Shown here: in pieces, positions 38,369-61,404 of the stretch
Layout: each line of letters begins with the position of its first letter
Position numbering within the stretch: the first letter of the stretch is position 1
DNA from: Escherichia virus TH15
Sequence record: MT446392.1
DNA length: 64,000 bases
Direction: 5' to 3' (one strand)
Notes under the pieces: model-generated
What the model was told of the DNA's origin: nothing
Seen by the model: the letters and a program-made list of their open reading frames with translations, nothing else
The model's database searches: none
Translations under genes and position numbers: made by a program

Positions 38369-38376
38369 TATAAATA
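38369..38376 (+). promoter_or_regulatory. T4-type late promoter TATAAATA for gene 4; near-consensus TATAAATG on the opposite strand for divergent gene 53
   Basis: Exact octamer 29 nt upstream of gene 4 ATG. Confidence 0.65.
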
Positions 38377-38404
38377 AGTATATCAATATTTATTAGGAGG
38401 CTAT

Positions 38405-38854
38405 ATGGCGTACTCCGGGAAATTTAAGCCCACTAATATAGAAAAATATAAGGGCGACTGGAAGAAAATACAATACAGGTCAAGTTGGGAGGCTTGGTTG
38501 ATGAGATGGCTTGACAACCATCCGAACGTTGTTCAATGGGGTTCTGAGACTGTTATCATCCCTTACTTTAGCAATGCTGATGGTAAAAAGCGCAGGTATT
38601 ATATGGATTTCTGGGTTAAGTTTGATACAGGACAACAGTTCTTTTTCGAAGTTAAGCCATTAAAAGAAACAAGGCCTCCAGCCAAACCGGTTAATAATAC
38701 CGCCGCGAGTAAAAAGAGATTTATTAACGAGATGTACACCTGGAGCGTTAACTCTGACAAATGGAAAGCTGCACAAGCTACCGCGGATAAGATGGGTATA
38801 ACGTTCAGGATAATCACTGAAAACTCACTGAAAAAATTAGGATGGAAAGGATGA
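38405..38854 (+). CDS. 4: gp4 head completion protein
   Basis: 149 aa; MAYSGK....N..KY.GD.KKI.YRS.WE matches T4 gp4. Confidence 0.92.
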
Positions 38855-41785: not shown

Positions 41786-42118
41786 ATGAACATCAAGACT
41801 TATAACGAGTTTTTAGTCGAATCCGCCATCAATGAGACCAAATCAATTGATGATAGTGAAGGCTCTCTGAAATTTGGTTTATCCAAAAATGCAGATGGTG
41901 TTTTCTTTCAGATTGGTAATGAACGTTTTCAAACGTCCAAATATTCCAAAGCTGCAGTTGAAGCTGTCCTGAAATCTGGTGGCAAGTGGAAAGGCAAAGA
42001 AGGTACTAAAGAAATTGGTATCGCTGTTGACGGCGGTATGGCTTATTTCAAAATTGGTGATGAACAATTCATTATGTCTGCTCGCGGACGTAAAGAACTT
42101 GCAAAACTTTATAAATAA
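41786..42118 (+). CDS. internal-protein-like capsid-targeted protein (N-terminal CTS-like MNIKTYNEFLVE)
   Basis: 110 aa from ATG 41786; N-terminus resembles T4 IP capsid targeting sequence MKTYQEFIAE. Confidence 0.65.
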   Translation: MNIKTYNEFLVESAINETKSIDDSEGSLKFGLSKNADGVFFQIGNERFQTSKYSKAAVEAVLKSGGKWKGKEGTKEIGIAVDGGMAYFKIGDEQFIMSARGRKELAKLYK

Positions 42119-42126
42119 GGTTTCTT

Positions 42127-42399
42127 ATGAAAACTTTCAATGAATTTTTCAACGAGTCCCAACTGAATGAAGAAGTAAAAATTAGTAAATCAGTCAAAGC
42201 TATGATTGACAATATCAATCACCTGTATAGCATTGACTTAACTGACCATATAACAATTGGCAACAAACGCAACTTTTTCGCGTTTGACATTTCAGAACTT
42301 GACCAGAACCAAATTAATAACATTGAGCGTTTTGCCAATGATAAGGGTCTCCGCCACGAGACAGCTGGTTATAAAAAATATGCAATTTATCTAAAATAG
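42127..42399 (+). CDS. internal-protein-like protein (CTS-like MKTFNEFFNE)
   Basis: 90 aa. Confidence 0.65.
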   Translation: MKTFNEFFNESQLNEEVKISKSVKAMIDNINHLYSIDLTDHITIGNKRNFFAFDISELDQNQINNIERFANDKGLRHETAGYKKYAIYLK

Positions 42400-43976: not shown

Positions 43977-44455
43977 TTATGAATATTAAATTTGGTCAGA
44001 CCATCCCTAAAGGTTATGTGATTGAAATTGAAACCTGGGAAAATGATGGTGACAACTATAAAACCCAGACAATATTTGGTGTAGAAGAACAAGAAATCCA
44101 GCAGTACAAATATATCCTGGAACTTTTTCAAGGCTCTCATTGTAACTATCCAGATAAATGTGGTAATTCAGAATGGGACGTAGTTAAAGACTTTCTTATC
44201 GCACACATTGAATCTGGTGTAAAATCTGGTCAATTAACTCCTGAATTCATTAACAAAACACTTTGTATTGAAAATCTGGAAAACCTGGTTGAAGGTGACA
44301 ACGGCCAGGAATTTGAATTATTGTGTTCTCTCCAGGAATTGCTGGGCGAGCCGGTGGAATATGATAGCGTTTTGCGCGTAGTTTCGTGGGTAAAATTATA
44401 CATCATCGAAGAAGAAATCCAAATACCAAACGTTAAAGCACTTAATATGCTTTAA
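43973..44455 (+). CDS. hypothetical protein
   Basis: 160 aa. Confidence 0.55.
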   Translation: MIMNIKFGQTIPKGYVIEIETWENDGDNYKTQTIFGVEEQEIQQYKYILELFQGSHCNYPDKCGNSEWDVVKDFLIAHIESGVKSGQLTPEFINKTLCIENLENLVEGDNGQEFELLCSLQELLGEPVEYDSVLRVVSWVKLYIIEEEIQIPNVKALNML

Positions 44456-44533
44456 GAGTTATGTGTTATTATTAATAAGTACCCTCTATTACCAAAGGTT
44501 CTTCCCTCAAAGAACCTCTCATAATAGAATTAA

Positions 44534-44607
44534 GGCCCTGTAGCTGGACGGTCAAGCGAGCGACTCATAATCGCTGGATGGTGGTTCGATTCCACCCAGG
44601 GCCACCA
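44534..44607 (+). tRNA. tRNA with anticodon CAT (Met, or Ile if lysidine-modified as in T4 tRNA-Ile), encoded CCA
   Basis: Manual fold: acceptor GGCCCTG/CAGGGCC, anticodon stem AGCGA/TCGCT, loop CTCATAA, T-arm GGTGG-TTCGATT-CCACC. Confidence 0.8.
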
Positions 44608-44741
44608 AACTTATTTTAAATTATCATGGCGATAGGTATTGTAGATGCGGTTCGATTCCGTCCGGGGTAAGTGCCCTAGCATGCTTGGAGCATGAGTGAC
44701 TTAATATTGGTGGTTCGAGTCCACCCCGCTATGAACAAACA
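44608..44741 (+). other. tRNA-like remnant or small stable RNA candidate (two T-arm-like motifs, no canonical cloverleaf found)
   Basis: GCGGTTCGATTCCGTC and GGTGGTTCGAGTCCACC present; acceptor pairing not found by hand. Confidence 0.3.
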
Positions 44742-44817
44742 CGAGGCATAGCTCAGAAGGAAGAGCAAGGACCTTCTAAGTCCTAGGTCGTAGGTTCGAT
44801 TCCTACTGTCTCGACCA
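44742..44817 (+). tRNA. tRNA-Arg (anticodon TCT), encoded CCA
   Basis: Manual fold: acceptor CGAGGCA/TGTCTCG, D-stem GCTC/GAGC, anticodon stem AGGAC/GTCCT, loop CTTCTAA, T-arm GTAGG-TTCGATT-CCTAC. Confidence 0.85.
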
Positions 44818-44989
44818 AACAAGAAACCGGGTCGCTACCGGTAAGTCGTCGGACTGAAGTTCCCTGTTTAAGGACTGACATTAATAAATCTTTATGTTTT
44901 GTTAATGACCCCTTATCTCACAGCTGAAACGGCGCACCTAATTATCGATTCGAGGAAATATCTTTGCCGTAAGCCGAGTGGCGTTTTTG

Positions 44990-45085
44990 ACGGAACGTTC
45001 GGATATGGTCGAGATATGGCCTTTTAAAAATATTGAGTAGCGTCAACTACTTGATAACCGGGTTCGAATCCCGGCGTATCGTACA
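44990..45085 (+). other. tRNA-like element or stable RNA candidate with canonical T-arm CCGGG-TTCGAAT-CCCGG
   Basis: T-arm seen; matching 5' acceptor not found. Confidence 0.25.
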
Positions 45086-45132
45086 AACACTTGCCTAGCA
45101 GGTGGAACCCCGACAAGGTTACCCTAGGTTAA

Positions 45133-45162
45133 AGCCCCTCCCGAAAGGTTGGGGCTTTTTTA
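45133..45162 (+). terminator. intrinsic terminator closing the tRNA cluster (AGCCCC...GGGGCT plus T6)
   Basis: Hairpin 45133-45156, T-run 45157-45162. Confidence 0.75.
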
Positions 45163-45168
45163 TAAATA
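45161..45168 (+). promoter_or_regulatory. T4-type late promoter TATAAATA on plus strand
   Basis: Exact octamer 27 nt upstream of ATG 45195. Confidence 0.6.
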
Positions 45169-45194
45169 TAACGTACCCATAACTAAGGAAATTT

Positions 45195-45749
45195 ATGAAA
45201 CTTTTAAAATATCTAAGCTGGATTCTGTTAGTGCCACTGGATTTCATTTCAATGATTCTGGCTGTTATCCTTGCACCATTTGTAGTGCCGTTCCATAACA
45301 AAAAGACTGGTAAGCTTCCGTTCGGATTTGACTGGATGATGACATACGATAATCCAATTGATGGTGACCGTGGTCATGTTAAACGTTGGGAAAAAATCAG
45401 AAAATGGCCGTTAGGTGTTTACTTCCAGCGAGTGGCCTGGCTCTGGCGAAATAAAGCCTACAATTTTGCTTATCATAAGCTGGGTCGCGATTGCGATTCT
45501 AAATTCCATTATAAAGGTAATCCTGATGTTGAATCGGGCTCCCCGGATAAAGCTCACCATGGCTGGCTCTGGATGTGGAATGATAATGCATGGGGCGTGT
45601 TCGCTTCCGTACCTTATCTTAAAGTTGGTGGAATCACCTTTTATCTGCGCGTGTATTGCGGTTGGAAGCTCAAAAGTCTTCTGTCCCGTCCTATCCCGAA
45701 AGCTATGTTAGCCTTTCATATCAATCCCTTCCGTTTTTATAAGAACTAA
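45195..45749 (+). CDS. hypothetical membrane-anchored Trp-rich protein, apparently late-expressed
   Basis: 184 aa; N-terminal hydrophobic segment; late promoter upstream; terminator downstream. Confidence 0.55.
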   Translation: MKLLKYLSWILLVPLDFISMILAVILAPFVVPFHNKKTGKLPFGFDWMMTYDNPIDGDRGHVKRWEKIRKWPLGVYFQRVAWLWRNKAYNFAYHKLGRDCDSKFHYKGNPDVESGSPDKAHHGWLWMWNDNAWGVFASVPYLKVGGITFYLRVYCGWKLKSLLSRPIPKAMLAFHINPFRFYKN

Positions 45750-45754
45750 TCGAA

Positions 45755-45778
45755 CCCGCTCCGGCGGGTTTATTTTTA
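45755..45778 (+). terminator. intrinsic terminator (ACCCGC-tccg-GCGGGT plus T-run)
   Basis: Read directly. Confidence 0.6.
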
Positions 45779-45796
45779 ATATTTCTTCAAAAAGTA

Positions 45797-45826
45797 GTGT
45801 ACATCCGGATTGACCGGGTGCATAAT
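45797..45826 (+). promoter_or_regulatory. early promoter GTGTAC / CATAAT
   Basis: 18-nt spacer; leader CCATACTGAGTTAC shared with 46345 and 46876. Confidence 0.45.
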
Positions 45827-45876
45827 GATTCCATACTGAGTTACACACTGAATCACAAAAACTTTGGAGAAATAAA

Positions 45877-46302
45877 ATGAACTTTCTGACCCTGACCTCT
45901 GCATTCTCTGTTACCCGCATCACTAACAAAATGGTTGCTGATGAAGTATGTGAAATCTGCATTCGTGAAGATGCACTTATCCATCTGACTTCAACCCAAA
46001 TTGTTGCCATCGCCAAGTCCCTTAATTCTGAACTGAAGGTAAACACCAAACAGTCAAAAGAATCCATCATTGAATTAATCCAAGCTGAAATGATTGAATT
46101 CCCAATTGAAGAAGTTAAAGAAGAAAAAATCCAGTCCAAATCTGGTAACGCCCGTGACATTTGCTTCCAGGCATTTGCAGAAATTGATATGAATGATAAT
46201 GCAGCTCGTCGCGCTCTGATTGATGACCTGGTTACTACCCATGATATCAAAAAGACTGTTGTTCAGTCTTATGCTTCCAACTTCCGCAAAGCTCAAAAAT
46301 AA
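45877..46302 (+). CDS. hypothetical protein, paralog of 46386-46829 (shared C-terminal motif QSYASNFRK)
   Basis: 141 aa. Confidence 0.55.
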   Translation: MNFLTLTSAFSVTRITNKMVADEVCEICIREDALIHLTSTQIVAIAKSLNSELKVNTKQSKESIIELIQAEMIEFPIEEVKEEKIQSKSGNARDICFQAFAEIDMNDNAARRALIDDLVTTHDIKKTVVQSYASNFRKAQK

Positions 46303-46313
46303 TTGAGAAAAGT

Positions 46314-46350
46314 GTTTTACTTCCAAGTGGGATAGTGTATAATTATCCCA
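46314..46350 (+). promoter_or_regulatory. early promoter with TATAAT inside GGGATA/TATCCC inverted repeat (PeSL-like)
   Basis: TATAAT 46338-46343. Confidence 0.5.
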
Positions 46351-46385
46351 TACTGAGTTACCAAATAAACAAACGGGATAATAAA

Positions 46386-46829
46386 ATGAAAACTTCAAAA
46401 CTGGTTAAGTACGTTAAACTGGCATTAAACAACTCTTCTGAAGCTGAAGCGCAATCCGCAGCGCGTATGTTCTTCAAACGTCTGACAGCTGAAGGTATTT
46501 CATTTAACCCGGCAGTATTTGGTATCACTCGTGGCGAAGCTGCTAAACTGGCAACTCTGGCAGGTAAAATTTTTAAAGGTCTGAATGATGGACAGGTTAA
46601 ACCAGAAGTTAAACCTACTCCTAAAGCTGAACCAAAAGCTGAGTGTAAGGCACCTAAACGCTCCGGTATGAGCAACAAAGATTTATGCTATGATATGTTC
46701 AAAACTGTTAATATGTCTAATGGTGCTGCTCGCAGAGCTGTTATTGATATGATTGTGCGTGAGTTTGGATTCAACAAAGCATCAGTTCAATCTTATGCTT
46801 CCAACTTCCGCAAAGAATTTGAAATTTAA
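46386..46829 (+). CDS. hypothetical protein, paralog of 45877-46302
   Basis: 147 aa from ATG 46386; C-terminus ...ASVQSYASNFRKEFEI. Confidence 0.55.
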   Translation: MKTSKLVKYVKLALNNSSEAEAQSAARMFFKRLTAEGISFNPAVFGITRGEAAKLATLAGKIFKGLNDGQVKPEVKPTPKAEPKAECKAPKRSGMSNKDLCYDMFKTVNMSNGAARRAVIDMIVREFGFNKASVQSYASNFRKEFEI

Positions 46830-60757: not shown

Positions 60758-61033
60758 ATGATATATAAGATTTGGACGTATATCTCTATTTTTGTTATTG
60801 CTGGAATTGCATTTATCCCCACACAAACAGATAGCGAGAGATATGAAAGGGAAATTGAAATAGTAGCAAGCACGTACCATTCTGTTAATAAAGAATGCCC
60901 GAATAAAAATGGAATAAATTTACAAAAAGCACATTATATGCTGACTGTTACTAGCCCAGTGCAAAGAATATGGGTTGATAGACATTTTTCTGATTTATTT
61001 GCAATATATTGTTTCAAGTTTAAAAGATTATAA
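60758..61033 (+). CDS. hypothetical small membrane protein
   Basis: 91 aa, N-terminal hydrophobic helix. Confidence 0.4.
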   Translation: MIYKIWTYISIFVIAGIAFIPTQTDSERYEREIEIVASTYHSVNKECPNKNGINLQKAHYMLTVTSPVQRIWVDRHFSDLFAIYCFKFKRL

Positions 61034-61036
61034 ATA
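61029..61036 (+). promoter_or_regulatory. T4-type late promoter TATAAATA on plus strand
   Basis: Exact octamer 72 nt upstream of lipoprotein ATG 61108. Confidence 0.45.
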
Positions 61037-61107
61037 CAGTTACTAACTAGTATTCCGCTATGTTAAGGCTGCAAAGCGTAATCATGACCAACAATAAGGA
61101 GTCCTTT

Positions 61108-61404
61108 ATGGACCTTATTCGAGGACTTTCTCTAAGTCTATTACTAATGGGCTGTTTAGGCCCAAATCTGTCCTCTGCTACAGATGGTAAATTTACCCAG
61201 TATGCAGATAGTGCGATGCAAATCTATTCGCAATTCAAAGAACCCAGCGTCGAGCAGTCCGAACAATTTTGGGCTTTTATTAAAACCGAATGGAACAATA
61301 AGAGTCAATGTGTAAATGAAATCACATGTCAAATTGATGGCCGGGCTGCTGCAGTCGAATACGCTAAATTAATGAAGGTAAAATTGGAAGATGAAATTCG
61401 ATGA
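61108..61404 (+). CDS. putative lipoprotein (lipobox LLMGC)
   Basis: 98 aa from ATG 61108 with strong SD TAAGGAG; signal plus Cys. Confidence 0.5.
   Translation: MDLIRGLSLSLLLMGCLGPNLSSATDGKFTQYADSAMQIYSQFKEPSVEQSEQFWAFIKTEWNNKSQCVNEITCQIDGRAAAVEYAKLMKVKLEDEIR

Follow-up and report, generated by a model that had tools for sequence, protein, structure and literature searches.

A DUF7338 gene cassette with a late-type promoter motif next to the rnaC terminator of a T4-like Escherichia phage

Lambdoid phages carry morons (a concept of Juhala and Hendrix), which are promoter–gene–terminator cassettes inserted between conserved genes. Phages also encode exclusion proteins, and those that are known are usually early and lineage-specific. 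Among the envelope-located accessory proteins, Llp of phage T5 and Cor of T1 and phi80 are encoded by genes that adjoin receptor-binding or tail genes. The T4 holin T has a cytoplasmic tail of roughly 30 residues. Finally, clusters of tRNA genes are known to be hot spots for mobile DNA.

Here we describe a cassette in a 64,000-nt stretch of the genome of Escherichia virus TH15 (MT446392.1; hereafter, the window), which carries a single gene of the DUF7338 family. The cassette is an ordinary accessory gene of an already known family and not a new kind of system. It has its own promoter and terminator and lies between elements that are contiguous in T4, and it resembles the lambdoid morons in being an autonomous unit with a precise insertion point, a slightly different GC content, a patchy distribution and signs of cross-family transfer. 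It differs from them in that it resides in a strictly lytic phage and has a late-phage promoter, as opposed to one that is active in the lysogen. Judging from its sequence elements, the cassette is apparently switched on late in infection, and we consider it very probable that it is a genuine late-biased unit encoding a bitopic inner-membrane protein.

Layout of the cassette and its insertion point

The DUF7338 segment is a self-contained unit on the + strand that consists of the motif TATAAATA, a Shine–Dalgarno sequence, a 184-codon ORF and an intrinsic terminator. Upstream of it, 3' of a tRNA-Arg gene, positions 44818–45160 align almost base for base with T4 rnaD and rnaC (T4 71171–70908, annotated rnaD/rnaC), and the homologues of rnaD (species 2) and rnaC (species 1) themselves occupy 44818–45130 (+ strand). 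Neither was called by ARAGORN or Rfam; the Rfam scan of 44300–45900 returned two tRNAs and nothing else. They are followed by the intrinsic terminator of rnaC and the tRNA operon (45131–45160, + strand; stem 45131–45138/45151–45158, then a T-run), which is conserved with T4 and JS10 and whose hairpin (45131–45158) folds with –16.9 kcal/mol (z –2.5), in agreement with the terminator scan. The preliminary description had placed a tRNA terminator here. There is a terminator, but it belongs to the stable RNA rnaC, which comes after tRNA-Arg and rnaD, and it should be annotated as the terminator of rnaC and not simply of the tRNAs.

The T4-type late promoter motif (45161–45168, + strand), an exact match to the gp55-type –10 element, overlaps the T-run of the rnaC terminator, and 26 nt separate it from the start codon (ATG, 45195), so that the reported exact late motif upstream of a 184-aa ORF was recovered. 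A Shine–Dalgarno sequence, AAGGA, was read at 45185–45189, 5 nt 5' of the ATG. The CDS (45195–45749, stop codon included, + strand) encodes 184 aa and belongs to DUF7338/phrog_2143 (Pfam, PHROG, AlphaFold). It is indeed closed by its own terminator at 45752–45778, which comprises a hairpin (45752–45771; –14.4 kcal/mol, z –4.0, again in agreement with the terminator scan) and a T-run. The right-hand boundary is formed by sigma-70-like (early-type) promoter-like sites found by the promoter scan at 45798–45837 (+ strand), which are outside the cassette itself and serve the next ORF (45877–46302). This promoter-like region aligns with the sequence 5' of T4 e.8, in keeping with the early-type surroundings that had been reported.

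In T4, 284 nt of non-coding DNA separate the rnaC terminator from e.8, with an early promoter-like site at the e.8 end. The order in the window is rnaC terminator, TATAAATA, ORF, terminator and a promoter-like site homologous to that of T4. Alignment of the window to T4 revealed no DUF7338 gene in the T4 slot and no TATAAATA at the matching place, where no gene follows the rnaC terminator. On this alignment, the cassette is seen to be inserted, relative to T4, exactly between the rnaC terminator and the next early-type promoter, which makes it a clean case of a moron-like insertion under late control in a strictly lytic T4-like phage. The GC content of the DUF7338 gene is slightly higher than that of its neighbours. 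The absence from the T4 slot, this GC shift and the ~60% identity between the copies of T4-like and Felix O1-like phages suggest an accessory, mobile character.

Late promoter motif and control of the gene

The window contains 19 copies of TATAAATA, compared with 5.4 ± 2.1 expected, and none of 100 shuffles reached 19. Eight other intergenic copies lie 18–35 nt before an ORF start, a range that includes the 26 nt seen here. The motif is kept at the gene in six of eight close relatives despite differences in the flanking bases: it is exact in the window, VR20, JS10, L008, L010 and L011 (L numbers are our designations of loci) and weakened to TATAAATC in UPEC07 and P479. A second weakened form, CATAAATA, is found in L013–L017, and the motif is absent at the gene in L009/L012 and in RB43/KP15-type phages. 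Since the motif is degraded or missing in some relatives, late-promoter control is, on these sequences, a feature of the lineage and not of the DUF7338 family.

If the motif works as it does in T4-type late promoters, RNA polymerase with gp55, gp33 and gp45 would initiate ~6 nt past it after the start of DNA replication. We infer a transcription start at ~45174–45176 and, from there, a monocistronic mRNA of ~0.6 kb; the upstream terminator would block early tRNA/rnaC transcription, so that the protein would be made mainly late. A late promoter on this strand would not be unusual, because the rI-like antiholin gene and the internal-head-protein gene of the same region also have one. A reading of TATAAATA as a sigma-70 promoter was rejected: by eye there is no acceptable –35 element at 17 ± 1 bp, since the G+C-rich hairpin occupies that position, and no site was listed there by the promoter scan.

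Control of the gene differs from lineage to lineage. The window has a late promoter, Felix O1-like phages embed the gene in a tRNA operon, RB43 and phiR1-37 have just a terminator in front of it, and small phages carry it in tail-fibre operons; in several lineages terminators tightly insulate the gene. The homologues for which expression has been reported also differ: phiR1-37 g263 was classed as LATE by RNA-seq, with only ~2-fold variation over time, and YerA41 g185 (YerA41_123), which was detected as a protein, was classed as 'middle'.

These data bear on the alternative that TATAAATA is not the main driver and that the gene is expressed mostly by read-through of the rnaC terminator from early/middle transcription of the tRNA operon, the motif being a by-product of the A/T-rich tail. 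Such a mode would fit the 'middle' YerA41 homologue, the limited variation of phiR1-37 g263 over time and the arrangement in phiR1-37, RB43/KP15-type phages and L009/L012, where the gene is directly preceded by a hairpin and a T-run but by neither a late motif nor an annotated promoter. It would also fit Felix O1-like phages, in which the gene lies 19–20 nt after one tRNA and 9–15 nt before the next and must therefore be co-transcribed with them. Against it stand the retention of the exact 8-mer in six relatives despite changed neighbouring bases, a motif-to-ATG distance that matches the eight other intergenic sites, the lack of the motif after the same terminator in T4 and the upstream hairpin itself, which is a strong terminator common to T4. 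We regard read-through as the main source of expression as rather unlikely. The late expression claimed in the preliminary description is plausible for the window gene, given the spacing, the conservation in six of eight relatives, the LATE class of the phiR1-37 homologue and the predicted co-transcription with tail-fibre genes in small phages, but it does not extend to control of the family as a whole.

The DUF7338 protein and the holin alternative

The window ORF matches DUF7338 (PF24027) over residues 1–183 of 184 with an E-value of 1.4e-62 (211 bits, cut-off 27) and phrog_2143 with an E-value of 1.2e-79. Family members, which include Felix O1 ORF48, phiR1-37 g263, YerA41 g185, RB43 ORF080w and JS10 EpJS10_0132, show full-length homology (E-values from 1e-62 to 1e-80), equal length and the same N-terminal anchor, and share with the window protein the motifs TYDNPIDGD, WLWRN and GWK. 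DUF7338 comprises 929 clusters at 50% identity, almost all of them single-domain proteins of 160–215 aa. At E ≤ 1, Pfam returned only DUF7338 and a spurious zf-CCHC match (0.096), PADLOC (PADLOC-DB) and NCBIfam returned no family, including known anti-phage defence and exclusion models, and the PDB sequence-profile search yielded only designed coiled coils and a reductase (E ≥ 0.087). Our literature search found nothing on DUF7338, PF24027 or phrog_2143.

The N-terminal transmembrane segment and Trp-rich body noted earlier are both present. The window protein has 11 Trp residues (6.0%), a pI of 9.9 and a single, strongly hydrophobic segment at residues ~7–33 (Kyte–Doolittle 19-residue mean up to 2.47). 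Codons 7–33 (45213–45293, + strand) correspond to a predicted signal-anchor (transmembrane) helix and codons 41–184 (45315–45746, + strand) to a basic Trp-rich alpha+beta domain, delineated by conservation, secondary structure and covariation. The AlphaFold model (pLDDT 93.7) consists of helix 2–33, short helices and then long antiparallel strands, and has no relative among solved structures.

Analysis of 176 family members (median identity 30%) showed an N-terminal hydrophobic segment in 96% of them. The charge bias amounts to +1.05 for the N flank of this segment and –0.30 for the C flank; the N flank is the more positive one in 73% of members, the bias is opposite in 12.5% and it is opposite or neutral in ~27%. 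With the positive-inside rule as the sole basis of the topology call, the protein would be N-in/C-out and the basic Trp-rich domain would face the periplasm. Covariation between the anchor and the domain is depleted (8 of the top 100 pairs versus ~30 expected), and the pairs 134–154, 136–152 and 138–150 covary as in a hairpin. The near-invariant residues T50, D52, W82, R85, N86, G156, W157 and K158 form the T-x-D, W-L-W-R-N and G-W-K motifs, all of which are found in the window protein and are 94–99% conserved over the 176 members; they suggest a periplasmic ligand-binding or catalytic domain. We also considered a hot-dog arrangement, with the N-terminal helix as a buried core helix, and rejected it, as the segment is extremely hydrophobic and shows little covariation with the domain.

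The architecture of the protein, with a length of ~200 aa, a single transmembrane domain near the N-terminus and a large, predicted-periplasmic C-terminal domain, together with late expression, resembles that of T4 T (PF11031). It could accordingly be a holin-like or lysis-timing protein that accumulates late in the inner membrane and makes or regulates the hole. Orthologues in Felix O1-like phages have been labelled class III holins by the Center for Phage Technology, and the Mushroom genome paper describes one as N-in/C-out (PMC4392139); no holin was found beside the Felix O1 lysin (PMC3185647). Endolysin cassettes lie directly 3' of the gene in L058 and L076, and in several lineages the gene is under late-type control and tightly insulated by terminators, as would be expected of a membrane protein whose dose or timing is critical. 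However, the class III label is based on topology alone, and our literature search found no experimental work on the proteins so named in Felix O1-like phages.

Several observations point away from a holin. There is no sequence, profile or fold similarity to T: Pfam returned only DUF7338, with no match to Phage_holin_T, and hhalign gave 0.3% probability against T of JS10, a phage that has a canonical t gene (PF11031 match) besides a DUF7338 copy 92% identical to the window protein. L076 and L058 each have a small ORF of their own beside the endolysin (89 and 84 aa), which by its sequence would be a membrane protein and possible holin and which had no match in PHROGs, and most DUF7338 loci are away from lysis genes. 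The cytoplasmic N-tail of DUF7338 proteins is only ~5 residues long, unlike that of T, and conservation is concentrated in a polar cluster of the extramembrane domain, not in the transmembrane helix. A holin-like role is thus unlikely in our estimate, as is a function as a T-specific partner, since DUF7338 is also present in phages outside the T4-like group (Felix O1-like and P2/Mu-like). Because T-holin homology is lacking and the gene coexists with t, DUF7338 should not be named a holin, and a holin label based on topology is unwarranted for this family.

The RI antiholin (PF24205), encoded in the window at 61060–61404, offers another comparison. Its gene likewise follows a late TATAAATA by 23 nt, the protein combines a membrane segment at the N-terminus with a periplasmic domain, and the two genes, which share a strand, are both accessory and directed at the envelope. 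Homology to RI was rejected, as hhalign gave 0.1% against the RI-like ORF of the window.

Genomic contexts and possible role

DUF7338 genes were found in tRNA clusters of large phages and at tail-fibre/lysis junctions of small ones, where the gene is, by its position, co-transcribed with tail-fibre genes. Co-oriented tRNA genes lie within 1.1 kb at 58 of 86 loci, representing about ten sequence-distinct lineages, and in about half of the lineages there is no tRNA nearby and the gene is located in a tail-fibre module. Tail-fibre genes adjoin it in L064, L076, L089 and L097. The gene is patchy among T4-like phages, and all cultured hosts of DUF7338-carrying phages belong to Gram-negative genera.

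The proximity to tRNA genes could mean that the domain is cytoplasmic (N-out/C-in), with a basic/aromatic patch that binds RNA or nucleotides and a function linked to the tRNA cluster. Binding to nucleic acid would be equally compatible with the near-invariant R85, K158 and W82/W157, and ~27% of members lack the charge bias expected for the opposite orientation. Even so, 73% are biased towards N-in/C-out, the protein shows no similarity to any RNA-binding family (Pfam, PADLOC, PDB profile search) and the lineages with tail-fibre contexts have no tRNA to be linked to. The T4 tRNA cluster contains segB and that of Felix O1 contains HNH genes; as such clusters attract mobile DNA, the association is explained without a functional link. 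We therefore regard an RNA-linked function as highly improbable.

The tail-fibre contexts raise the possibility of a virion-associated or tail-fibre-assembly protein whose hydrophobic N-terminus ties assembly to the membrane or enters that of the host upon infection. In at least six lineages the gene is found among tail-fibre, chaperone and baseplate genes, its timing appears to be late, and the YerA41 homologue, annotated 'structural protein', was found by LC-MS/MS in purified particles. Polymerases, helicases and further non-structural proteins were, however, present in that preparation as well. The RNA-seq gene table of phiR1-37, which draws on a deep virion proteome, does not label the homologue as virion-structural, Gp48 was not among the structural proteins identified for Felix O1 (PMC3185647), and T4 lacks the gene, which is patchy in T4-like phages although they share the same virion design. 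A virion component is, in our view, quite improbable.

The preliminary description had named lysis timing, superinfection exclusion and envelope remodelling as possible roles; only homology to the T holin and to the RI antiholin could be excluded, and we treat all three roles as candidates. The best overall explanation, to which we assign about an even chance, is a late, inner-membrane-anchored accessory protein that acts on the envelope. Residues 7–33 would insert as an uncleaved signal anchor, N-in/C-out, so that the ~150-residue alpha+beta domain, basic and rich in Trp, would lie on the periplasmic side of the inner membrane. There, the cluster of T50, D52, W82, R85, N86 and GWK156–158 might bind, or act chemically on, a conserved and probably anionic envelope component, and the protein would presumably not form the lysis hole. 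In what is the least certain step, this horizontally mobile factor would condition the envelope late in infection. It may be tied to the tail-fibre/receptor side and limit how far progeny or secondary phages engage the infected or lysed cell.

We treat a specific role in exclusion or receptor conditioning as doubtful. The protein shares with Llp, Cor, Sp and Imm (the last two from T4) a small size, an envelope location and an accessory character, and in small phages its gene lies next to tail genes, as do those for Llp and Cor. It has no homology to any of the four (Pfam returned only DUF7338), and whereas these are lineage-specific and made early or in lysogens, DUF7338 is late-biased, conserved and has near-invariant polar residues. 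Late bias and broad conservation, unlike those of the usual exclusion proteins, speak against such a role. In L058 and L076 the tail-fibre neighbourhood is also that of the lysis cassette, and context therefore cannot separate exclusion from lysis roles. The placement in tRNA clusters in about half of the lineages is not accounted for by envelope conditioning.

A more far-reaching reading, which we offer tentatively, is that DUF7338 proteins make up a class of phage envelope effectors not recognised before: anchored in the inner membrane, with a fold that differs from all solved structures, they would work in the periplasm as enzymes or by binding a ligand. Lytic phages of Gram-negative bacteria might make such a protein late to alter a conserved part of the envelope, such as a lipid-linked glycan or an anionic lipid, and so govern re-adsorption, superinfection or how lysis proceeds; the recurrence of the gene in tRNA clusters and at tail-fibre/lysis junctions would reflect gene mobilisation and timing. 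The family merits experiment, being large and phage-restricted, with a confident fold that has no solved relative and a near-invariant polar cluster, and if its target were found, it would be a new late-acting envelope function for phage biology. The window locus alone adds little to the databases, because an identical protein exists in phage TH22.

Sequence searches indicate that DUF7338 is a widespread phage-only family. A bacterial origin or context was rejected: there were only six matches in 185,579 bacterial and archaeal genomes, and one of these (L088) is a 178-kb contig resembling a T4-like phage. A prophage copy, seen in a separate look-up, starts 10 nt after a tail-fibre chaperone gene.

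A probable late-promoter cassette behind the stable RNA genes

The 2-kb surroundings of the DUF7338 gene match T4-like phages of Gaprivervirus and Dhakavirus, most closely phage TH22 (97.6%). On the plus strand of the window, which runs in the counter-clockwise direction of T4, the gene order is 57A/57B, ipI-like genes, trna.4-like ORFs, tRNAs and then e.6/e.8-like ORFs. The cassette noted in the preliminary description is present on this strand with each element in its place: terminator scans gave a hairpin with a T-run upstream (45131–45158; RNA fold −16.9 kcal/mol) and another downstream (45752–45771; −14.4 kcal/mol, z −4.0), a motif search located the exact late motif TATAAATA at 45161–45168, and ORF calling returned 184 codons beginning with the ATG at 45195 (45195–45749). 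A Shine-Dalgarno sequence, AAGGA, can be read at 45185–45189.

The upstream hairpin had been taken for a tRNA terminator. It is a terminator but not simply that of the tRNAs: nearly every base of window 44818–45160 aligns with T4 rnaD (species 2) and rnaC (species 1), terminal hairpin included, and the hairpin is therefore the rnaC terminator. These homologues, located 3' of tRNA-Arg, were not reported by ARAGORN or Rfam. Of two close T4-like relatives, JS10 lacks ∼ 150 nt of the rnaD/rnaC element and VR20 carries a ∼ 400-nt insertion at the same point. Between tRNA-Met and tRNA-Arg (44608–44741), two tRNA-like T-arm motifs (GGTTCGATTCC and GGTTCGAGTCC) that were not called as tRNAs look like tRNA genes that have degenerated or been rearranged, since JS10 has an intact tRNA-Asn there.

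In T4, 284 nt of non-coding DNA separate the rnaC terminator from e.8, and their last part contains an early promoter-like sequence. In the window, TATAAATA begins within the T-run of the rnaC terminator, and the DNA 3' of the ORF and its terminator aligns with the A/T-rich GTTTACA promoter-like stretch and Shine-Dalgarno region of T4, where a promoter scan was also positive. The alignment shows the DUF7338 slot to be empty in T4; lying between two elements conserved there, the cassette is therefore an insertion relative to T4. As read from the sequence, its anatomy is that of a moron, with its own promoter, ORF and terminator inserted between conserved elements. The GC content of the gene is 43–44% vs 37–41% for the flanking ORFs. 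Downstream, the adjacent ORFs 45877–46302 (141 aa) and 46335–46829 (164 aa) look like paralogues with a common C-terminal motif, ...ARRA(L/V)ID...VQSYASNFRK. Each has an early-type promoter-like site upstream and neither has a Pfam match; in another record they are named rho-N and H15 domain proteins.

The 19 TATAAATA sites in the window exceed the 5.4 ± 2.1 seen in shuffles, and the majority of them lie directly upstream of ORF starts. The 26-nt gap between motif and ATG at the DUF7338 ORF is typical of the recurring intergenic gaps (18–35 nt). A late promoter on the plus strand is not exceptional, because three other ORFs on this strand also follow TATAAATA. The rI-like antiholin ORF (PF24205, E 5e-30) starts 23 nt downstream of the motif, the two together spanning 61029–61404. 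In 42110–42399, only 9 nt separate the end of the motif from the ATG of an internal-head-protein-like ORF, too few for a normal leader; either the start codon is wrongly set or the motif belongs to an ORF farther downstream. The third ORF (149 aa, within 38369–38854) encodes a TnsA-like endonuclease N-terminal domain (PF08722) and is divergent from the minus-strand ORFs on its left, which were taken as baseplate/late genes.

Overall, the cassette is very probably a real, insulated, late-biased transcription unit that encodes a bitopic inner-membrane protein and constitutes a mobile accessory gene. Though correct, the finding is an ordinary one: databases already contain the gene, its family and an identical protein (phage TH22), and its regulatory elements are those usual in T4.

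The DUF7338 family and its predicted fold

The window protein is a full-length member of DUF7338 (211 bits, Pfam) and of phrog_2143; neither name occurred in the papers searched. Among 1.84 billion representatives, a profile search yielded 929 clusters (E ≤ 0.001), nearly all of them single-domain proteins of 160–215 aa. With tblastn, the gene was found in 569 of 50,697 phage records, including Gaprivervirus, Dhakavirus, S16/STP4-a-like, RB43-like, KP15-like and Felix O1-like phages, YerA41, phiR1-37 and Aeromonas and Pseudomonas phages. Just six loci were found across 185,579 bacterial and archaeal genomes, one of them a 178-kb contig resembling a T4-like phage; a separate look-up added a homologue in a Chitinivorax prophage. 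DUF7338 is a phage family. In one 121-kb viral contig (locus L056, 2917–3554) the gene is broken into two overlapping ORFs, apparently by a frameshift or as a pseudogene, unless the sequence contains an error.

The membrane segment and Trp-rich body of the preliminary description were borne out: the protein (pI 9.9) has one very hydrophobic segment at residues ∼ 7–33 and 11 Trp (6.0%). An AlphaFold2 model built from an alignment of 36 sequences (mean pLDDT 93.7, pTM 0.83) predicts a helix at 2–33, short helices at 43–95 and a sheet of long antiparallel strands at 105–183. Simple covariation in 176 members (median identity to the query 30%) recovers the predicted hairpin register (134–154, 136–152, 138–150) and helix contacts. 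Pairs linking the N-terminal helix to the rest are depleted (8 of the top 100 vs about 30% expected), which fits an independent membrane anchor and not a buried core helix. The hydrophobic segment occurs in 96% of these members, with a mean charge of +1.05 on its N flank and −0.30 on its C flank; by the positive-inside rule, this favours an N-in/C-out topology that would place the domain in the periplasm.

Residues T50, D52, W82, R85, N86, G156, W157 and K158 are 94–99% conserved. In strand 147–159, the conserved R152, Y154, G156 and K158 alternate with hydrophobic residues and hence would lie on one face of the sheet, in what looks like a putative site that would bind or act on an anionic ligand. 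The remaining interest is in the family itself, which is large, phage-only and unlike any solved structure, with near-invariant putative site residues.

Genomic context and timing of expression

DUF7338 genes recur in two contexts, tRNA clusters and, in smaller phages, tail-fibre modules. Co-oriented tRNA genes lie within 1.1 kb in 58 of 86 loci (among them the window and the homologue-bearing loci L004, L013–L017, L024–L047, L068, L069, L071–L079). Many of these phages are unrelated, and the loci represent about ten sequence-distinct lineages, namely several groups of T4-like phages, Felix O1-like phages, a 121-kb contig, a 183-kb contig, 237-kb jumbo contigs and small contigs. Often a tRNA lies within 15–20 nt of the gene on either side; in Felix O1-like phages it starts 19–20 nt after one tRNA and ends 9–15 nt before the next. 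Either tRNA clusters carry the gene along when they move, or the two are coupled in expression, although the link may merely reflect such clusters being insertion hot spots, and other mobile genes reside in them (segB in T4, HNH genes in Felix O1). A cytoplasm-facing, RNA-linked role would suit these neighbours; set beside the favoured periplasmic topology, it is highly improbable.

Tail-fibre modules hold the gene at L058, L064, L076, L089, L094 and L097; at L086 it adjoins a baseplate wedge gene. In the Chitinivorax prophage it starts 10 nt 3' of a tail-fibre chaperone gene and is the final prophage gene; in the small phages it directly adjoins tail-fibre genes. YerA41 g185 was found by LC-MS/MS in a particle preparation, which also held polymerases and helicases, and the published gene table gives phiR1-37 g263 no virion-structural label. 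A role in the virion or in tail-fibre assembly appears very improbable.

Exact TATAAATA is retained in the window and five close relatives despite differing bases on both sides; in two relatives the motif reads TATAAATC and the leader is shortened, and in a group at 67% identity it reads CATAAATA. Nothing but a hairpin and a T-run, ending 15–21 nt before the start codon, stands ahead of the gene in L009/L012 and in every RB43/KP15-type phage. At L006, L016, L018–L023 and L052 (RB43/KP15-type) and L102 (phiR1-37), a strong hairpin with a T-run ends 15–32 nt ahead of the DUF7338 start codon, and the interval contains no recognisable promoter; expression there seems to depend on read-through of the terminator, unless the hairpin serves another purpose, e.g. 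in RNA processing or stability. That most expression of the window gene, whatever its function, comes from read-through and not from TATAAATA is rather unlikely. In published data, phiR1-37 g263 is classed as late (normalised counts 698, 485 and 950) and YerA41 g185 as middle; the phiR1-37 genome record annotates terminators on both sides of g263 and no promoter. The overall picture is one of non-early, often late expression via different regulatory routes.

Surface conditioning and lysis as candidate roles

The DUF7338 protein might act on the envelope and condition the cell surface late in infection, in an exclusion-like or receptor-conditioning manner. We favour this role, tentatively, because a domain that is probably periplasmic bears the conserved polar, basic and aromatic patch, because genes of the family have tail-fibre neighbours and because separate holins coexist with them. 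In Center for Phage Technology records of Felix O1-like genomes the orthologue is labelled 'holin', and the holin candidates of the Felix O1 paper do not include this ORF (PMC3185647). Membership of known holin or antiholin families was ruled out: a Pfam search of the window protein gave no match to Phage_holin_T, hhalign against the JS10 T protein returned a probability of 0.3%, and profile comparison revealed no similarity to the RI-like antiholin of the window. DUF7338 is mislabelled as a holin. In JS10, a DUF7338 gene with 92% identity occupies the same slot, and a canonical t gene lies 3' of gene 38.

DUF7338 may still have a role in lysis, and in two small phages its gene lies just upstream of the endolysin gene; a holin-like or lysis-timing function is nevertheless unlikely. 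Both endolysin cassettes hold their own small ORF beside the endolysin, with no PHROG match, and one also has an Rz-like spanin. From their sequences, these small ORFs read as membrane proteins. The DUF7338 protein is not the only holin candidate.
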